A stretch of DNA of 54,308 nt, counting the filler, from Dirinaria sp. TL-2023a (lineage: Eukaryota), in NCBI GenBank assembly GCA_051941275.1. It is 2 parts of 2 records of this genome, joined end to end, with 100 filler letters (N's around TTAATTAATTAA, not from the genome) between each part and the next. Parts side by side here need not be neighbours in the genome. Positions count along the whole stretch, not along the records: positions 1 to 27,132 come from JAVEBF010000149.1; 1 more part is not named here. One strand, written 5' to 3'. A program made the position numbers and the translations under genes. Position 1 is the stretch's first letter; each line of letters starts with the position of its first letter. Shown in pieces: positions 8,371 to 21,745 of this stretch. Below the pieces are notes generated by a model. It was given only the letters and a program-made list of their open reading frames with translations. It had not been told where the DNA came from and ran no database searches.

Positions 8371-11183
8371 ATGGAAGGCATTGAAAAGCATAAAAAGGAA
8401 TTTGTTGAAAGCTTCATAAAGGGGTTGGAATCTTTTGAACGGCAATTGCTGGACGAAATTGCAGTCCGTATGTTGACTTTTTCTGCCATTCAAAGGTTAA
8501 CCACAAAGCTCAGTCTTGTTACTTAGGTGATGACCCCGCGAAAGAGACCCAGAAAAGCCTTCGCGAGGCGCAAATTGCCGCCAGAAGAGACGCTAGGCGG
8601 ATCGCAGCCTTAGAACGAGAGTTGGCCTACTTGCGTGCCCAACCCGATTACGTGGATCAAGAAACCCACGCAGCTTCTTCGTCAGATGCTACCCTAAATA
8701 CCCCGCCTCTGGACTCCAGGAAAGCCCTTGCCAATGCGGGTACACAGTGTGAACTTGTGTCAGCGGAAGAGTTCAGGCAATTGCAACAAAACTATTCCCG
8801 CCTTGAACAGGACTACGGAAAACTTGCCATCGCGCGTAATATAGTGGAGGAAAAGCTTAGAAGCAGTCAGAAGATGGTGCGCAAGTGGAAAGCATATTTT
8901 GATAAGAGGGGTTCCGAGTCTAGGAAGCAAACGATCCGAAATGGTACTATCAGCAGCAGTACTGTTGCCTCAAGCGAAACAGGTGGATTCATACGTGCCT
9001 CGAGTGCACCTGCATACATGTCTTTGGTAAGGCAGGGTGGACCGAGTTCTGAGTCGGAGGTCGTTTGTCCTACAGTGCCTGCGGCTGCATTCCATAGTAA
9101 CGGTGGATCCCACGATAATGCCACGTATCAAGCACTAATATCAACGGGGAGCAATTTCTATCAAGTAACTAGCGGCTTGGAGAATGACAAAGCTGCGACT
9201 TTGGACGACACTGAAGATACCACGGCGCCAGATTCTGCCGACGAGAAGGGAAGGGAGCCTTTGCAGCCGACTGCTTTAATCGAACGGGTAGAAGATGATT
9301 CTCCAGTTTTGCTGTCAACCCGTGCAGTCAAGCGAAAACGCTACCGAGAATCTCCCCCACCAAATGCTATGCCTGGATTACCCCACAGCAAAAACCCTTT
9401 GCCAGGTACAGCTGAAAAGCCTGTTCACATTAAAAGTGATCAGAGTTCTAGCCCGTTGGTGGTAGTGCGGTCTCAGCATCTTGACGAGCATGATAGTATG
9501 GACCTGGACGAAGTAGGAAGTAAGACCCCAACTCCCAGGAAACGTCGGCGACATGACATAGTGCGGCTCCCATTCACCATTTGTGAGCCATTGTCGCCTA
9601 CAGACGGCCACGAGCATGATTCAGACCGGCTCACAAGAAATGATACTGCATCCCGCCAAGAAAGCGAAAAAAGGTTCAGGGATCAATCAAGCAACGTAAG
9701 TCCCTCATCGATACTTGACGAAGAAGCGTGTAAGAAGAAACGTGACCAGTACGCCGCTTTGCTGTGGGCAAAGCAGCAAGAGAAAGACGTAAAGCCCGGA
9801 GGCTTTAGCAGTGTCGAAGGTTCGTCTACTCCACTACATATAGCGGATGAACCACGACAGAAACGGAGCTTTCTGTTCAACCAGGCGGTACGAACTAGAA
9901 GAGCCAAAGAAAGGACCGACGAAGCCCATTTGTCAGCCGATACGAAAGGCACTGAGATAGTGCCAAAAAGAACAATCTGTCATGACCAAGGCGAGCGCGC
10001 CAGGCCACCGACGTCCAAAAAAACATTGCACCTTGTCGGGCCTAGCGGTGAGTCTCTCTCTAATGAAGCTGGGAGCCCACAATCTATATTGCAGCCTGCT
10101 GACCCAAATATCCTTCCGCGGACTGGCGGCCTCATCAAGAGGAAAGTTCCGACCCCCAGCCGCCGCGACCGTGGTTGTGCACCCGTGGAGGTGCTCGCAG
10201 AAGATGGCGAAACCAAAGCTAAATCATTAACTCATAATCACCATAGAGTATCGAAAGCGCCAGAAGCTGAAGAACGGCTCGAAAGTCTTCTTGCGCAACG
10301 GCAACCAGACAAACCGCTGTTACCGCCCGAAACACCAGGCGCCAAAAAAAGAACTCCTTTATCAAGGCATAGTATCACAACTCTCGGTGGACAAGTTGAT
10401 GTCTTGACGGCCAAGAATGGGTTAACACCTGCTGCATCTGGAGCATCAAACCAAAACGCTGGCAAAAATTCGAACCAATCTTCAATTGACCATCGGCCGA
10501 AGAAGCCAATCCCTATTGACATCGCCCTAGGATCTACCAGGCCAAGCTCGACTGGATTTCTAACCTCTACAGGCCCGAAATCTTTATCGCCACGGAGAAC
10601 AGCAGTGGTTTCCCTAAAGAGCCCAATCCGTAACTGGCCTAGAGAAATTCTTCGCCGCGAGCATTTTAAGCCGAATCCCTCGCATAATTCAGGATACTCC
10701 TACGCTTACCGCGAATCTATCCGCAACCATGACGAGCGCAAATGTCTCCCAGGCTGCAGCCGCCCAGATTGCTGCGGTGATGTAGTCCGGAAAATGCTCG
10801 CTATTGGCGGTCCGATCATGAATACTAGAACAAGTCTATTCTCACCAGCTTCTAAAGCCCCTGAAAACGACGACGGCGTAGATCACGGCTTGCTCAAAGA
10901 CTATATGGGAGACAATTACCGCTGCTGGGCAACAATGACTGACAAGGAGAAGCAAATCGAGTGGGCGCAGGCGCAAGCGTGGGACTTTAGCAAACGATAT
11001 GGCCGGCATAAGGATAGTGGAAGGCAAACCACGCCGCCGGGCTATTGGAAGGTGGATATGGCGAGCACGCAAGAAAAGGAGCAGCAGGATGAAGAGGCGG
11101 AGATGATGGAGAGGGCGGTGGTGGAGGGGAGATGGAGGGAGGCGATGAGGAAGGGAGGTGCGTGGGTATTTGCTGACGAATAG
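8371..11183 (+). CDS. DNA end-resection protein Sae2/CtIP/Ctp1 family
   Basis: ATG at 8371 and a GTATGT...TTAG intron ending at 8526 join in frame to the 853-aa ORF. N-terminal coiled coil; C-terminal SAE2-domain motifs RKCLPGCSRPDCC and YGRHK...TPPGYW. Confidence 0.85.
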
Positions 11184-11620: not shown

Positions 11621-14482
11621 TCATCCGCTGACTTTTTGATAGAAAAGAATATAGGCAACCTTGTTATCTTTTACCACCGTGCGACCGACAGGAGTCATCT
11701 TTCCTGATGACTGGGTAGGCGTTGCGTTGCCATTAACGAGCCCAGACCATTTTCTGCCGGTCGTTGAAGAGCCAGACGATGTACCGTTGACTTGGCTCCA
11801 ACCCCTCTCAGCTGACATTGACTCCGCGTCCTCTAGCTGATCGTATAAATTACCCTTAGAGTTTTCGTCCATTTTGTGCTGCTCTAGAGCCGCAGCTAAA
11901 ATCCTTGGGTCTTCTTCACTTCCACCTTCAGCAACATCTTCACTACGGATTCTGCGAATGATGGTATCGTCAAGTCTGATCCACTCGCGGCCTTCTTGCC
12001 GGCGTACGTCGACGGTATAGTGGCCGCCACTCGCGTTCTTGCCGTGGTGGTAGACAACGCTGATCAGGCGATACCTAGGTAGGCGGCCATGAGCGACAAG
12101 CCCGCTACGCTTGTGCTGTGGGAAGACTTCCTTGGGAATCTCCAGTTCTAGAGGGTACCCGACCTTTTTCCAGATTTTCTGGGTCCCACCAGCATTATCG
12201 TACTGGAAGCGCTTAAGATGAAGGATAAGAACCTGTGGTAGGGTCTCAATTGTCACTTGTTTGGTGGCATTGCTTCCTGGTCCGCGCGGAGAGTTGAATT
12301 CCCCATGTAGCGTTTCGGCTTTAGTAAGACCTTTCAGCGCATCAATGATATTGTTTACACTGGGAGCACCAATGTCAAGCTGCAGTGGCTGATACGGTTC
12401 GAGGGTAACCGAGTTCTTCATACCAGGTACTCGCAACTCGGAACGCAGCTTGCCACCAAAGATTTTCGTGATTGGAGATTCGGTAGTGATTGCCCCAGAC
12501 GACCGCGTGATAGCAGCCTTTTGCTTGCGGCCAACCTCCATCCATTCGTCATCGACTGTCAAAGAAGAGCCAGACGCCTCGCTAGGAGCAGGTACAGCTC
12601 CATTGGTGGGCGTCGAAGCTCCGGACGAAGAAGTTTGAAACTTCATTGTGCGGCTGCATTCATCATGCATCTCTTCAAGTATAAACCCGAGAAATTCTTC
12701 GGCATCCTGCTGATGCCCCCTCTGCAACCGTCATTAGTTTTTGAACAAATCTGAAATGTGGCTGGAACTATTTACCCTCATGGATGAAAAACGCGGTAAG
12801 CGCCTAATGACCTCATATACAAACTCGGGAATGAAGGCTTCCCCATATTGCTCCAACTCGTTATCCTTCAACCGCATCTGCAGCTGTTTGACGGAGACCG
12901 CAGAATCGATAGCAGAGAACTCTCGCATAAACATTATCCTAGTAGCGCACTAATTAGCATCTAACGGTGACGTTGAGAGGACCACGAATATGCGGTGCAC
13001 TCACATGGCATCCATCAATGGTGTATCGTTCTTGAAGCTATGAGCAGCCCGCTTTCCAACTTGATCGAGAAAAGTGTAGAATGGAACGCAAAACACCAAA
13101 ACCTGCAGTATCTGCGGGTAGAAATCAGTAGGCATCAACTAGTGTTCCTGTGAACAAGAACTTACGGAATTCATATAGCACATGTTCCCAGTGTTGACGA
13201 GGCCACGGGGTTCAAGGAATGCAACTCTACTATTTTCATTCGCTCGCTCCACACTATAAGAGCTCAGTGCTTCGGAGAGAGAGCCCGCTTTGTTTGCAGC
13301 AAGGCCATTCGTCTGCGCGGCATTGGCATCTTCACAACTGGCTGTGGTGCTTTTGGGATGCGCCTTGGTTCGGACAAGATCCGCCCAAGACTTTGGTGTA
13401 GTCTTCGCTGGCTGAGATGACTCTGGCGCGGCTAGCTCCGCTGTTCCCACGCCATCGTCAGTTTTGAACTGAGCAGCGATGCCCACCGCACTGGTAAGAT
13501 GATCTGCATTGGTTGGTGGAGGCTCGATAGCTTTTGAGACTTCGGAAGTAGTGCTAGCAGGCGTGTGTTTCAGTGCCCGGGTAGGGAGAGGAATATTGGG
13601 AATGGCAGGAACGATTGTCGCCAAAGACGCCGCCGAACGGTGGGAGCTTTTTTGAGACTGCTTAGGCTGCAACCGAGGCTGTGATGATACGACTGCTGAA
13701 GAAGGCGTCGTTGGCTGTGTCGAGTCGGTATCTGAAGGGTCATAAGATGTAGTTGGTGTTTCAAGAGTATGAGTCGTTGGAGTAGCTTCTAAAGTTGAAG
13801 TTACTTCTGATACAGGAGGCTTCGCTTCTTCTTGAGATATCTGGTCTGGTAGATTGGATATATCACGAGAGGGCAATACAACGGGAATGCTTGGCGATTG
13901 TGGAGCGGGCTTTTTGCGACGTCGCTTGGTTCCTTTAGATGGAAAGGAGCCTTCAGGGAATGAGTACCAAGGCAGCTACGGACTAATAGTTAGCGTTGTT
14001 TGAGTGGTGGATACGGGAAATACAGGTCTTACCGGAGGATAATAGGGCATACGCTGGGTCGCTGGTAAAGGAGGTGGCGGTGTAGTTGCTACAGGATGTG
14101 GAGCTTGGACGAGAGTTGATGGCGGAACACTGAGCGACGTGTTCGAAGGTGCAGGAGAGACCATGCCTTGATGAGAGTGTACCGATGGACTTGATGGGGC
14201 ATGCTGCGGTATATGAGGACGGTGCTGCAATGGCGTAGGATTGCGTGGTGGCATAGGGTATGGCGCACTGTTGACCATTGACGGGTATTGCTGATATGGT
14301 CTTGGTATCGGCATACCCATGTGCTGATATTGTGGAGGATACCATTGTTGGGAGTAGTGCGAGGGAGGATACGGGTGAGAGTAGCCTTGGTAAAAGTGAG
14401 GTGGATGTGACTGTTGAGGAACGTAGCTCATATCATGTTGACGCCGAGGTATAGCGGGCTGCAGCGGTATGTGGGTGTTCAT
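11621..14482 (-). CDS. UBP3: Ubiquitin-specific protease Ubp3/USP10 family, 5 coding exons
   Basis: Cys box PRGLVNTGNMCYMNS|ILQVL, QQDAEEFL, LHLKRFQY and His box VYHHGKNASGGHYT. Long P/Q/S-rich N-terminus and PKSWADLV motif. Four GT-AG introns restore one frame. Confidence 0.9.
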
Positions 14483-14879
14483 GCCGCCTGCTCACTGCTG
14501 CCCGGCTGGCCACGTCGATTATCGACGAGGCAATATCTGTTAGATGGCTTAGGAAATCATTCTCCTGAAGTGTGGAATGCTCAGAAAAATTGGTGGCTTG
14601 TATAGTAGCGATATCGCGCTGACAGTTTCGTGTCGAGAGATTTTGGCAGATAATAGGAGGCTGAACTGTCAAATCAATTGCTCGCTCAACTATAGTTCTA
14701 GTCTATGGGCATGTAAGAGCGTGGTAAGACGTATGATTTTGCAGGGACATACCCTATGTGTGCTATTCCAGAGCACAGGTAGCTACAAAAAGGCTTTGTT
14801 GCTGACATAGAATCGATATGTGTGGAGACTGGGTGGCATGAGATGAGGTCCAAAAGCCCAGGCTTTGGACTTTCCCAGA

Positions 14880-14887
14880 CACGTGAC
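14880..14887 (-). promoter_or_regulatory. GTCACGTG E-box (Cbf1-type bHLH consensus RTCACGTG) in the UBP3/MAG2 divergent intergenic region
   Basis: CACGTGAC on the + strand; function is inferred from consensus match only. Confidence 0.4.
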
Positions 14888-15111
14888 ATGACCTCGACTC
14901 CTCTCTTAGGCTCTTACCGTCCGTCCTTAGTGAACTAGAGTAGACTGCAGTCAATGCCTACCTTAGTCACCCCAGTCCGGGGAGTCGGAACAATCTCGTA
15001 TGGATTTCAGTGTATGAATCACCTCATACCCTTTGGGTTTGACAGAGCTACTATTAGACTATCGGCTCTATCAGAAGCATTCATCTCATTCATATCTGGG
15101 AGGGGGTTATC

Positions 15112-17490
15112 ATGTCGTCTACTCTCCCGATAGCTACTTCCAAGAACTCGAACACATCGTCCCAGACTGCGCCATCTTCACAAAACCAGACAAATTCACT
15201 CGCAGCCTTCGACAGCCACCCGCAGCGACGAAGTGGTGGGTCTGGTAGCTTTGGATCTGGGGCTGTGTCACGCAATTCGCCCTCTACTCCTCGAAACAAT
15301 CAGTCGCTTCGAAAACAAAACAAAACCCAAAGGCGTCCAAGGCTTGCGGATGAGGATGCTATTGCTGAATCCGTACGCCACTTGTTTTTGCTATCATGGC
15401 TTTGCCTTCTACTCTTAGCTGATAATTCTGTACTCGTAGGCGGCTATGCAGTCTACAAGTAGCCGGAAAGGGCGGACTTCTATCACCCACCTCATGAACT
15501 TTACCTTGCCGCCTCGGCCTCAGAATCATCAACCTTACCACTATGGCCGGAATACAGGACGCAATCCTTCATGGGGTCTCGGTTCTGGTTATCACGCGGT
15601 CGACAAGGCCAGGTAGAGTAACGTTACTTTCAAGCGCTGTATCTCAATTCATAGGTTGTTAGGTACATTCATGCCAATTACCGGTTTTTGGTCGATCCTA
15701 GAGGCGACTACCGAGCCCAAGCTACAGATGCAGACGTGCATTTGGACTGGAGTAACGTGCTGCAGGTCATAGCCTCAGCCCAGTCTCAATCGTCGAATTG
15801 CCCTATCTGCTTATCGACACCAATCGCCCCGCGCATGGCAAAGTGTGGACACATCTTCTGCCTGCCTTGCCTCATCCGTTACATGCACTCCGCAGAAGAC
15901 GTTATCCCCTTCCCGGAGAAGAGGGTTCGATGGAAAAAATGCCCTATCTGTTGGGACAGCGTGTATATGTCGGAAATACGCCCCGTGCGATGGTTCATCG
16001 GTCTAGAAGGGGAGGGACCCCGCGATGGCGCAGACGTAGTCCTACGACTTATTGCACGGGGTGCAGGGAGTACGCTTGCTTTGCCCCGGGATGGAGCTGA
16101 GGCACAGGATAGGCTTGAGGATATCCCTTGGTACTTTGCCGCAGGAGCCGCTGATTACGCTCGTATGATGAAGGGCAGCGAGGATTTTATGATGGAACAG
16201 TACGAACGAGAGATCTCGGAGCTACAAATACAAGAGAAAGAAGACGAGCTATTGTTTGGTGACGACAGTATCTGGACTAGAAAAGCCGCTTCAGCCATCA
16301 ACGACGCGAAAGAGAAATTGAAAGGTGTTGGGAATCCGCCAAGCAAACAGCGGCCGGAGAAGAGGGTCAGGCATTCTGCAGTGAAGTATGATACAACCAC
16401 GCGTGGTGTACCAGTAGACCGCATTGATCCGCATACTATCAAGACTGAGCAGTCCTCACCAGATGGAATAACTTCTTTTCCAAAATCATCTGCCTCCTCG
16501 TCCTATGAAAATGCAGACCAGATGGACAAGGTGACAATGGACAAGAGCCTACACAACGACAAATCATTTTCGTTATCAGGGATAGAAGATTCATCAGGCC
16601 CTCAAGCTTCTGCATCTAAGAGTACTATCTCCCCAGCTCTCCGACATACCAGTGATCGAACATTCTACTTCTACGAAGCTTTACGCCATTACTACCTTTC
16701 GCCACTCGATATCCGGATCCTCAGAACGGCTTTTGGAGATTTTAGCTCTTTCCCTTCCACTATTCTAGCTCGTGTAGAGCGAGTATCTACGGGACATATT
16801 GTCGACGATGACTTGCGGAAACGAGCAAAATACCTTGCTCATCTTCCCCACGGTTGTGAAGTCGGGTTTCTTGAATGTGATTGGACAGACGTGGTTGGCC
16901 TTGATGTACTGAAAGGATTTGCACCGGAGATTGAACGGCGGAGGAAGAAGAACCAAGAGAAGGCACTCCGTGAGGAGAAAGAGCGATTACGAGCAGAGAA
17001 AGAAGAAGATGAGAAGCGATGGGCAACTGCGCGTCGAAGACGGCCGACACCACCGAGTGAAGTCGCCTTTGACGCCGACTTCCATCCATTGCCGTCGGTT
17101 GAGGAAAGACGGGAGAGTTCATCTTGGGACGAACCAGCCGCAGCTGCTCTGTCTCCACCGTGGCCCTCGTCACGGCAGCACACTGGTTCTGCTTTTGCTT
17201 CGCTCGCTTCTCCATCTACTAGCCCCGTTGCAAGCAGGACAGTATGGGGTACCGCAGCAGTAGCCCCAGTATCGCCGACGCGACCTCCCGCTCAGCCGGT
17301 TCAGGATGCCTCTGAAAACGATGGATGGCTCCAGAACTGGGAGCAAGATCTCTTACAAGAGGACGAGCTACTGGCCCAATTTGAAGCCCATTCAATCGAT
17401 GGCTCGAAAGCTGCGGGGCCATTGAACAACAAAAAGAAGAAGGGCAAGAAGATAACCCTCATGACCACGACAGCCCGACGAGGCGCATAG
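15112..17490 (+). CDS. MAG2: RING-finger E3 ligase Mag2/RNF10 family, 3 exons
   Basis: ITHLMNFTLPPRP motif and ARYIHANYRFLV. C3HC4 RING CPICL...AKCGHIFCLPCL...WKKCPICW; YYLSPLDIRIL; LRKRAKYLAHLP; C-terminal KKKKGKKITLM. Confidence 0.88.
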
Positions 17491-18143: not shown

Positions 18144-20144
18144 ATGCCCACCACCCGACTCCAAGCGGGAGAATCCCCTAGGTAAGCCTATAGTCACTGT
18201 CCACTTGAATCGTTTCAGCTCAGATCCAGTAACTGTACGCGTAAGAGGAGGCTGATCAAAGCGTAGGAAAACCGAGCACCCTGGTTATGTGGAGACACCA
18301 CATCGTCAACGTCGTCCCAAGCGTCAATCCTCCGCACCGGACACGAAAAATGACGAGCTCGGTCCAAAGAGGCAAACAAGGTCGCGTCCAAGGACGGAAA
18401 ATGGAACCCTAATACAGAATGGCGCGATCAACGGAGTTGTTGGTAGACACGCAGTGCACCCGGAGACCCTTGATGCGTTGGAACAGAAGTCCGACCCACG
18501 TATCGATCACAGTCCCAGCTACGAGTTTGGGGGAACGTTGGGCGTTGGCGCGATGATGATTGGCTTTCCTTTGCTCATGTATTACATGTGGATTGGCACT
18601 ACGTACTACGACGGACATCTCCCTCTTCCAGCGGAGGGGCAATCCGTGTCGGATTTCGCGAAACACCTTGCAGTCTTGATACACGAGGGAGCGTTTCCGC
18701 ATGCCAAAGCCTGGGCGATATATTGGATTTTCTTCGTTTTTGAAGCACTTTGCTACATCTACCTACCAGGCGTGTATTCAAAGGGCAAACCGCTACCACA
18801 TGAAGGGGGAAAGCAGTTGACATACTACTGCTCTGGTGTCTGGTCATTCTATGTGACCATTGCGGTCGCGGCTGCGCTCCATCTCTCCGGACTATTCAAG
18901 CTCGAGACAATACTGGACGAATTTGGACCTATTATGACAGTTGCAATCATCAGCGGCTTCCTTGTCTCGGTGATCGCATATGCCTCCGCACTGTACCGTG
19001 GCGTTGAGCACAGGATGACAGGCCACCACATATACGACTTCTTCATGGGTGCGGAGCTCAATCCGAGGATGTTTGGAATCTTAGATTTCAAAATGTTTTT
19101 TGAAGTTAGATTGCCATGGTTCATTCTTTTCCTGATATCCTGCGCCGCTGCCACTCGGCAATATGACCAGCTCGGATGGGTATCGGGCGAGGTCGCTTTC
19201 CTTCTCATGGCTCATTTGTAAGGATATCCCATACCTTGGAAATGATCATTATGCAGCAGTAACTGAAGTTTTCAGCCTTTACGCCAATGCATGTGCAAAA
19301 GGGGAGGAATTGATTGTGACCACATGGTAAGTCAGCGTGCTTCAGTGCGCCATTATGTACTCATCGTGCGGATAGGGATATGTATTATGAGAAATGGGGA
19401 TTCATGCTCATCTTTTGGAACCTGGGTAAGTCATGGCCGCTGCTGTCAATTCATAGCGAACCTGATGATAACGATCCTAGCCGGTGTCCCACTTTCATAC
19501 TGCCATTGCACGCTCTACTTAGCAAACCATGCTCCATCCGTCTACAAGTGGAATCGCTTTGCGTTAATTGGACTTTATACGTCCTATCTCTTTGTGTACT
19601 GGGTCTGGGATACTGCGAACAGCCAGAAGAATGCACACCGGCACAGCGAACGGGGCACGTTTCAGGAGAGACGAACCTTTCCTCAACTGCCGTGGAAGCA
19701 TGTCAAGAATCCAACGATCATTGAAACTGATACTGGCGATTCAATCTTGGTAGACGGCTGGTGTATGTTTGCTTTCTCCAAGTCTACTGCAAACATTTCT
19801 CACATTTCAGCAGATGGACTTGCTCGAAAAATACATTATACAGCAGATGTAGGTACCCATGGGCCGACTCCACGCAATCAGCTGACCATTCGAGCAGCTC
19901 TACTTTTCTTTGACCTGGGGCCTTATCACTGGCTTCCAGAGTCCCTTCCCGTGGTTTTACCCAGTGTTCTTCACGTGCATGATCGTTCACAGAGCGCTTC
20001 GGGACATTGAACGGTGTCGAACGAGATACGGCAAGGCGTGGGAGGAGTATGAGAAGCGAGTGCCATATATATTCATTCCGGTGAGTTAATTCAGAATACC
20101 TGGAAGAGCGCTGAGGTAACAGGTTGTACCAGTACATCTTCTAA
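18144..20144 (+). CDS. ERG4: Delta(24(24(1)))-sterol reductase (ERG4/ERG24 family), multi-exon
   Basis: [74 protein letters not shown]; ends VPYIFIP|YIF*. Confidence 0.93.
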
Positions 20145-20499: not shown

Positions 20500-21745
20500 A
20501 TGCTTGTGACCGAGTCTTTCGAGGATGTTTCGACAGAAACCGGTCCAATGCGTATGAAGCTTGAATTCTTGGACTTTAGCTTCTCTAATTTGGGCAGGCA
20601 TCTTTCTTTACCATCCCACGATTGCGAACTACCCTCAAGCGCGTTTCCCTGGTGTCGTGGTCTTTAGCGAGATCTATCGTAAGCTACGACCGCTTTCATA
20701 TACTATATGTTCTTTCTTTCGTTGATGGCGATGGTACGGGGGACTCCTTGCGAGTTGCACTGCTCAATCATTTCGCATGATTCTCTCGTCTTGACTGCAC
20801 GAACGAACTAAGTCCGTGATACACTAGAGGTGACAGGACCGGTCGCTCGCTTTGCAAGGCAGATCTCAGGACTGGGCTATCTTGTAGCTGCGCCGTCAAG
20901 CTTTCACGAATTCGTAGGCCCGGAGCCACTGGCCTATGATGGCCCAGGCACGGATGCTGGAAACGACTACAAAATTAAGAAGGTGGGTCTACCCTTGATC
21001 ATATCTCCCTTCACGATTCTGCCCAGATCGTCAAGTCCATTTAAATTACGACCCGGCAAATTCGGCCTACCACGCTACGAGGGAAAACTCTTTGAGCGAC
21101 TAAGAATGAAGCTTGGGTTTTGATAGCCGCTTGGGTGACTTTTCGATACAGTTATAGCTGACGGGCATGTGCCACAGAAGCTCTCTGCATATGACTCTGA
21201 CGCGTCCGCGTCCGTCTCCCTCCTCCTTTCCCTCCAGACTTGCAATGGCCGCATCGGTGCCACCGGCATGTGCTTGGGTGGCCACCTGGCCTTTCGATGC
21301 GCTCTGGACCGGCGAGTTGCAGCGGCAGTATGCTATTTCGCAACGGATATCCACAGCCATTCCCTGGGCGAAGGCAAAAACGATGATAGTCTCGAACGAT
21401 CTGGGGACATTAAAGGGGAGTTGGTGATGATCTTTGGGAAGCAAGACAACCATGTCCCGCCTAAGGGAAGGGATATGATAAGGCAAGCGTTGCATGCGAA
21501 AGAGGTGTGCTTTAGCTTTTATGAGGTCGCACATGCGCAACGTATGCACTCCTTAGCATCGAACGCTGCAATGGATTAACGACGAGACAGACGCTTTCAT
21601 CAGAGATGAGCTAAGCAAAGGCCGGTATGATCCAGCGATATCCAAGATCTGCTTCGAGATGCTATTAGAATTATTCGCGAGAGCGCTCAAGACGGAACTA
21701 GGACCCAGAGTTGGAGGTGACCAAATCATCGAAGATGTATGCTAA
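20500..21745 (+). CDS. Dienelactone hydrolase family (carboxymethylenebutenolidase-like), 5 exons
   Basis: Spliced MLVTESFEDV...FPGVVVFSEIYQVTGPVARFAR...GATGMCLGGHLAF (G-x-C-x-G nucleophile)...QDNHVP...AQHAFIRDELSKGRYDPA. Confidence 0.9.

Follow-up and report, generated by a model that had tools for sequence, protein, structure and literature searches.

Background

Ubiquitin marks on the 40S ribosomal subunit are set and removed by enzymes with opposing activities, and the closest described systems are the antagonisms of human RNF10-USP10 and yeast Mag2-Ubp3. According to a review (PMC10878831), RNF10/Mag2 attaches mono-ubiquitin to uS3 and uS5 on stalled or defective 40S subunits, and knockout of USP10 raises these uS3/uS5 marks, with 40S decay following. 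The title of a yeast paper likewise links Ubp3 with mono-ubiquitination of Rps3. Here we describe genes of the same two protein families, a deubiquitinase (DUB) gene of the UBP3/USP10 type and a RING E3 ligase gene of the MAG2/RNF10 type (hereafter UBP3 and MAG2), which lie head to head in a 54,308-nucleotide stretch of assembly GCA_051941275.1 from Dirinaria sp. TL-2023a (Caliciales, Lecanoromycetes), called the window below. A first-pass annotation of the window had proposed the two as a linked writer/eraser module and treated the antagonism as established, and for the yeast and human proteins it is indeed in print (PMC10878831). In those systems the relation is biochemical only; here the genes share one intergenic region.

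Bidirectional gene pairs kept in evolution are already familiar. The fungal pairs RAD16-RAD7 and HSP60-HSP10, listed in the table of PMC2871058, are also head to head with a short spacer and wide retention across Pezizomycotina; pairs of this type are sometimes functionally linked, and UBP3-MAG2 differs from them in joining antagonists, not partners in one complex. A looser parallel exists in Schizosaccharomyces pombe, where ubp3 is SPBP8B7.21 (PMC3032702) and P8B7.23 has a co-directional HDEL receptor gene and a convergent Atg8 gene as neighbours (PMC2871058). In the order ubp3, erd2-like HDEL receptor, SPBP8B7.23, atg8, the homologous DUB and RING genes stand within two positions of each other; they are non-adjacent and, by naming convention, non-divergent, unlike the pair described here.

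None of the papers listed by a literature search mentions genomic linkage between RNF10-type and USP10-type genes, and the UBP3-MAG2 pair is absent from the main table of PMC2871058 and from the supplementary sheets covered here, including under a UCH/zf-C3HC4 Pfam pair identifier. We thus found no earlier description of the pairing. It constitutes no new kind of system, but it is notable for joining a writer and an eraser already known to act on the same ubiquitin marks of the 40S subunit.

Results

Layout and conservation of the pair

The UBP3 and MAG2 genes are a real, ancient head-to-head pair sharing one compact intergenic region. Their start codons (ATG 14482 on the minus strand, ATG 15112 on the plus strand) diverge with 629 bp between them, where the first-pass annotation had read about 630 bp, which places them among bidirectional pairs as usually delimited (opposite strands, divergent, starts less than 1 kb apart); the RNA-covered parts of the two genes come as near as 173 bp. 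The head-to-head layout, likewise claimed beforehand, is borne out by gene models and RNA-confirmed splicing.

Conservation was assessed in two independent sets of fungi. The first comprises the 15 lichen-fungus species with positional locus tags in both the UBP3 and the MAG2 match lists, which cover Lecanoromycetes, Candelariomycetes, Coniocybomycetes and Thelocarpales. UBP3 and MAG2 carry consecutive tags in 14 of these 15 (Gallowayella weberi, Ikaeria, Squamulea squamosa, Psora testacea, Blastenia, Variospora velana, Xylographa soralifera, X. trunciseda, Lambiella, Caeruleum, Candelaria, Candelina, Thelocarpon and Chaenotheca), the exception being X. opegraphella, whose tags are 11 apart and on contigs of different length. 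The second set derives from a metagenome scan with a MAG2 alignment, which gave 225 confirmed matches, of which the best 80 were kept with flanks of up to 10 kb; these 80 loci fall into 47 lineages at ≥90% nucleotide identity, in which neighbouring genes were identified by tblastn with open reading frames (ORFs) of the window.

Where 4 kb or more of sequence precedes MAG2 (30 lineages), UBP3 is found there on the other strand in 27. By comparison, the ERG4/ERG24-family gene that follows MAG2 in the window keeps that place and orientation in 11 of the 28 lineages with 3 kb or more of downstream sequence, and lies elsewhere in the locus in 4. Among the 24 lineages with both flanks, UBP3 is kept in 22 and ERG4/24 in 10. 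On the other side, the SAE2 gene that lies beyond UBP3 in the window occupies that place in none of 19 representative loci (Pfam, 122 ORFs), where instead a mitochondrial carrier, ERG4/24, a cyclin, a Na/H exchanger, a dienelactone hydrolase or a WD40 protein is encoded. The Pfam scan over the 122 ORFs was preferred for this gene because SAE2 evolves fast: tblastn recovered it in 0 of the 80 loci, although lineage L016 carries one, and a two-seed hidden Markov model found it in L016-L018 only. In Leotiomycete-like loci, ERG4/24 has shifted to the far side of UBP3 and the pair itself is intact. The first-pass annotation had proposed to abandon its idea if the pair were no better kept than its flanks; at 27/30 against 11/28 and 0/19, the pair is retained well above either flanking adjacency.

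The UBP3 start was also sought in other lineages by a [FYW][YF]PP heuristic, which gave spacers in five lineages besides the window (451-853 bp, with one unreliable value of 1986); these lengths were not used.

Distribution and loss

The best named relatives of pair-bearing loci are Eurotiales (Thermoascus 91%, Penicillium 73-78%), Leotiomycetes (Cadophora 90%, Lachnellula 71-81%) and Pleosporales (Paraphoma and Coniothyrium 81-93%), as well as many lichen fungi. A quick maximum-likelihood tree was built from 39 of the 47 lineages (8 with a short or interrupted exon were omitted), to which the window and 19 named proteins were added. In this tree the pair is present in clades that are Eurotiomycete-, Leotiomycete-, Lecanoromycete- and Pleosporales-like. 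The arrangement is at least as old as the last ancestor shared by Eurotiomycetes, Leotiomycetes, Dothideomycetes and the lichen-forming classes.

Three pair-less lineages have a long flank of at least 4 kb: L076 (nearest to Meristemomyces, 74%), the L072 cluster (nearest to Aureobasidium, 88-91%) and L016-L018. Short-flank L070 and L073 are arranged like L076, with a dienelactone-hydrolase gene upstream of MAG2. In the tree, the Dothideomycetidae-like pair-less rows all fall in one clade (SH-aLRT 99), and pair-less L016 is nested among Lecanoromycetes that carry the pair; these two nested clades imply two losses from an ancestral pair.

Both losses have recognisable local structure. Throughout the Dothideomycetidae-like group (L070 and L072-L077, near Aureobasidium, Neodothiora and Meristemomyces), the dienelactone-hydrolase gene stands on the opposite strand in the place of UBP3, and a homologue of it is found in the window at 20812-21742, two genes downstream of MAG2. 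Here the pair appears to have been split a single time, by a local rearrangement. At L016:13173-15794, and also in L017 and L018, a SAE2/CtIP gene lies directly downstream of MAG2, tail to tail with it, with no UBP3 nearby; since SAE2 is tail to tail with UBP3 in the window, a small inversion or excision that removed UBP3 is suggested.

In S. pombe the RING homologue is P8B7.23, two gene numbers from the DUB gene on chromosome II; the naming convention makes it probable that both are read from the same strand, a single gene separating them. Such two-position proximity among some 5,000 genes is unlikely by chance (<0.1% by our own estimate) and hints at a linkage older than Pezizomycotina.

Gene models and identity

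The UBP3-like coding sequence runs on the minus strand through five exons (14482-14033, 13975-13166, 13111-13005, 12938-12776 and 12721-11621, stop included), and the MAG2-like coding sequence on the plus strand through three (15112-15372, 15440-15612 and 15663-17490, stop included); both models can be aligned end to end with annotated homologues. A public model of the ubiquitin-specific protease (USP) gene, P0121 (822 aa), begins at an internal methionine, so that window positions 14320-14482 are affected; the upstream ATG at 14482 (876 aa) is backed by the longer N-terminus of the Candelaria and Lecanora homologues and by RNA cover. An NCBI protein assigned to a Dirinaria sp. metagenome-assembled genome is 100% identical to the USP exon.

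The first-pass identities stand at the level of the family, as judged from domains and homologue names; those names are the automatic ones of their sources, and no phylogeny underlies the UBP3/USP10 and MAG2/RNF10 assignment. The USP protein combines a long N-terminal part rich in Pro and Gln with a USP domain at its C-terminus; the last exon matches Pfam UCH (E=3.1e-34), and the Cys and His boxes are visible in the motifs NTGNMCYMNS and GGHYTVDV. A long low-complexity N-terminus followed by a C-terminal catalytic domain is typical of the Ubp3/USP10 subfamily. Across 99-100% of the catalytic exon the protein is 63-77% identical to homologues called 'mRNA-binding ubiquitin-specific protease UBP3' or 'ubiquitin carboxyl-terminal hydrolase 10', and among the best 120 USP matches the only subfamily-specific names are UBP3, 'hydrolase 3' and 'hydrolase 10', the others being generic; one member of the P0169 cluster bears the family-level label 'Peptidase C19 ubiquitin carboxyl-terminal hydrolase 2'.

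The RING protein contains a C3HC4 RING (Pfam zf-C3HC4, 29.4 bits against a cut-off of 21) whose eight zinc ligands (C46, C49, C61, H63, C66, C69, C93 and C96 in large-exon numbering) are invariant across 13 sequences. Its conservation reaches far beyond the RING, with N- and C-terminal blocks kept, and it matched 1,859 cluster representatives at E≤0.001. These include the S. pombe O94271 (P8B7.23) cluster (E=8.7e-80, in two stretches), a Trichomonascus 'RING-type E3 ubiquitin transferase MAG2' (E=9.5e-70) and chytrid proteins named 'RING finger protein 10' (E of about 1e-46 to 1e-45). Dothideomycete homologues are named 'RING-finger protein Mag2/Rnf10' (Septoria linicola) or 'ring finger protein p8b7.23'.

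Searches of the PDB by sequence and of the ESM Atlas were of no help at the subfamily level. Against the PDB, the RING exon returned generic RINGs only, the USP catalytic exon returned only other USPs (Ubp8, USP15, USP7), and the low-complexity second exon of UBP3 (270 aa), searched for the N-terminal Bre5/G3BP-binding segment of the subfamily, matched no solved Ubp3/USP10 peptide at E up to 10. The ESM Atlas gave only generic RING and UCH clusters; one of its RING clusters is automatically named 'Alkylbase DNA N-glycosylase', the old name of MAG2, which is a lead only.

Transcript evidence

Seven runs match part of the stretch; four RNA runs, all from one lichen metatranscriptome sample, were aligned. 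Their contigs are 95-99% alike to the window, so their source is a close relative. In these contigs the four coding introns of UBP3 and the two introns of MAG2 are spliced out exactly as modelled. One X2 contig also joins 14702 to 14753, skipping 50 nt bounded by GT..AG on the minus strand (GTATGT at 14752-14747), and an X3 contig stops at 14703 with a 9-letter loose end that fits the sequence past 14753. Together these show that the UBP3 5'-untranslated region (UTR) intron, foreseen by the first-pass annotation from a GTATGT donor near 14752, is real and spliced at 14703-14752.

RNA cover reaches 14804 in the leader of UBP3 and starts at 14978 (X2) or 14987 (X1) in that of MAG2, contig ends not being equivalent to transcription starts. 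No contig of the four runs falls in the intervening 14805-14977, which is not readable as absent transcription. The MAG2 leader holds two upstream ORFs (uORFs), one of 5 codons and one of 39 codons that overlaps the main ATG out of frame (Table 1). Upstream ATGs within 140 nt of MAG2 occur in 10 of 18 lineages, too weak a signal for a claim of conservation. At window position 15102 the RNA contigs are one base shorter in a G-run just before the MAG2 ATG, which is a strain difference or a homopolymer assembly error.

Motifs in the shared region

The E-box reported by the first-pass annotation at 14880-14887 is present, reading CACGTGAC on the plus strand and GTCACGTG on the minus strand, and falls between the two RNA-covered leaders. 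With 6 copies of CACGTG in the whole window, one copy in 629 bp has about a 7% probability by chance and is unremarkable alone; its recurrence at the same position in other lineages is what lifts it above chance. Positions below are counted from the start of the large MAG2 exon in 28 pair-bearing lineages. CACGTG occurs between -930 and -690 in 13 of them (at -784 in the window), and this is the highest count among the 64 palindromic hexamers, the runner-up reaching 5/28. Against a background of 0.139 per kb in the same loci, the binomial probability is about 2e-12, a figure that ignores shared ancestry. The interval holds no copy in any of five pair-less lineages.

A second motif, TGACTC (mostly as GTGACTCY followed by a C/T-rich tract), is present between -930 and -664 in 21/28 lineages (background 0.48 per kb). 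It is strongly oriented, 25 of 30 copies reading in the direction of MAG2, and the full TGACTCA appears in only 3 of the 30. At the corresponding place the window has TTAGTCAC, followed by an inverted repeat (ACCCC-AGTCC-GGGGA, 14969-14983) located where the MAG2 RNA contigs begin. The same ACCCY-N-GGGGA pattern is found in nine other lineages. In L011, L013 and L016 it precedes the large MAG2 exon by about 690 bp; in the Pleosporales-like L045, L050, L054, L067 and L068 and in L044 it stands at -561 to -799. The repeat could be a core-promoter element or a 5'-terminal mRNA hairpin.

CACGTG is a Cbf1/Pho4-type and TGACTC a Gcn4/CpcA-type site of fungal promoters. The same core motifs recur in the shared region as putative sites, to judge by sequence; the strong orientation of TGACTC here suits a core-promoter element equally well.

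Flanking genes

The pair is followed downstream of MAG2 by the sterol reductase gene and bordered, beyond the 3' end of UBP3, by SAE2/CtIP (Table 1). The SAE2/CtIP homologue has a single exon encoding 769 aa and changes very fast except in its C-terminal domain.

Table 1. Features of the UBP3-MAG2 locus and its flanks, in window coordinates
Feature	Position	Strand	Evidence and remarks
UBP3/USP10-like deubiquitinase gene	11621-14482	-	Splice models, Pfam, RNA contigs, homologue alignment; 876 aa
UBP3 5'-UTR, second leader exon	14483-14702	-	RNA contigs of X1, X2, X3; 3-codon uORF from 14560
UBP3 5'-UTR intron	14703-14752	-	50 nt, GTATGT donor, GT..AG; joint 14702->14753 in RNA contig
UBP3 first leader exon	14753-14804	-	52 letters of X2 record 6 past the joint; contig end, not a transcription start
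CACGTGAC E-box	14880-14887		232 bp before MAG2 ATG, 784 bp before large MAG2 exon
TTAGTCAC and inverted repeat	14963-14983	+	TTAGTCAC at 14963-14970, where other lineages have GTGACTC
MAG2 5'-UTR	14978-15111	+	RNA contig cover; uORFs 15000-15017 and 15014-15133
MAG2/RNF10-like RING E3 gene	15112-17490	+	Gene model, RNA contigs, Pfam, homology; 753 aa
SAE2/CtIP gene	8874-11183	+	Flank, tail to tail with UBP3; Pfam SAE2 E=1.7e-23
ERG4/ERG24-family sterol reductase gene	18256-20007	+	Downstream of MAG2; Pfam ERG4_ERG24 E=2.2e-62

Discussion

The retention of this pair would be accounted for if the shared region served as one bidirectional promoter whose central part holds the CACGTG box and a GTGACTC-type element. 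A shared promoter of this kind would couple the output of the writer and the eraser of the 40S uS3/uS5 mono-ubiquitin marks, and selection for their ratio would hold the two genes together while their outer neighbours were reshuffled. We consider it probable, though well short of assured, that dosage coupling of writer and eraser by a bidirectional promoter, with selection on their ratio, is what keeps the pair; the co-regulation and the reason for retention are both inferred. A bolder version, to which we attach a rather low probability, is that the linkage of 40S writer and eraser predates the filamentous ascomycetes, the fission-yeast arrangement being a remnant of it, and has been kept by a shared nutrient- or stress-responsive promoter (CACGTG plus GTGACTC) that sets the ratio.

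Several observations weigh against coupling as the cause of retention. The pair has been broken twice and neither gene family was lost with it; in S. pombe it is, by naming convention, not head to head. In Saccharomyces cerevisiae the two genes (YER151C and YLR427W) lie on different chromosomes, so that the pathway works there without linkage. The E-box is missing from its interval in 15 of the 28 pair-bearing lineages, including all the Leotiomycete-like ones and the lineage nearest the window (L001-L004), as well as in many lichen lineages. The oriented TGACTC and the ACCC..GGGG repeat remain upstream of MAG2 in L016, which has no UBP3; they may therefore be MAG2-proximal elements of that gene's own promoter rather than shared ones. 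The RNA comes from one sample, and contigs carry no expression levels. Sampling is biased as well, the loci being the 80 matches most like a lichen-fungus query, with none assigned to Sordariomycetes, Pezizomycetes or Orbiliomycetes. Finally, the table of PMC2871058 has dozens of divergent pairs conserved across Pezizomycotina, many without a functional similarity score; since many functionally unrelated pairs are conserved, conservation alone is no proof of functional coupling.

This last point leads to the strongest alternative, passive retention, in which a short region of interleaved promoters leaves almost no safe breakpoint, each gene has its own promoter and the shared pathway is coincidental. 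We regard it as possible but doubtful. The table of PMC2871058 includes conserved divergent pairs with a similarity score of 0.00, and the behaviour of the motifs (at a fixed distance from MAG2, and still present in L016), the two losses of the pair with no visible consequence, and the linkage in S. pombe without a head-to-head layout are all compatible with it. The last of these cuts both ways, as the S. pombe genes are still within two positions of each other despite the changed layout. Nor is a 629-bp spacer unusually short, the mean fungal divergent spacer being 1343 bp in the same source (PMC2871058). It is also a priori very unlikely, at roughly two divided by the gene number, that enzymes acting on the same 40S lysines should be adjacent by chance.

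Mistaken orthology, in which one of the genes is a paralogue (another USP or RING) and the writer/eraser interpretation fails, is in our judgement very improbable. It draws on the automatic origin of the names, on Ubp8 and USP15 being the best solved USP matches in a database, the PDB, that is without a Ubp3/USP10 catalytic domain, and on the lack of a solved Ubp3/USP10 peptide matching the UBP3 N-terminal region; set against these are the strong match of the RING protein to S. pombe P8B7.23 and to yeast and chytrid proteins named MAG2/RNF10, its conservation well outside the RING, the high identity of the USP to UBP3/USP10-named proteins over nearly the whole catalytic exon, and an N-terminus and domain order that are typical of the subfamily. 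We give equally little credence to coupling at another level (shared chromatin state, replication timing or anti-correlating interference, making the pair a switch and not a balance): divergent neighbours can interfere with each other, and any correlation might run in either direction, but one and the same sample yields spliced RNA contigs from each gene, so that the two are not mutually exclusive there.

Conclusions

Gene order in filamentous fungi is heavily scrambled, and this pair outlasts both of its neighbours across several classes, which provides independent genome-context evidence for a functional unit, that is, evidence that Ubp3/USP10 and Mag2/RNF10 act as one unit beyond yeast and mammals. 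The region of about 600 bp between the genes is a convenient cis-regulatory handle: editing it in a model fungus could shift the writer/eraser ratio, with uS3/uS5 ubiquitination and 40S stability as the readout, and Pleosporales with the pair and Dothideomycetidae without it offer a natural comparison. On the bolder reading given above, of rather low probability, fungi would tune 40S turnover under starvation or translational stress via one cis-regulatory switch, and the lineages that broke the pair (Dothideomycetidae-like fungi and budding yeast) would have had to evolve separate control.

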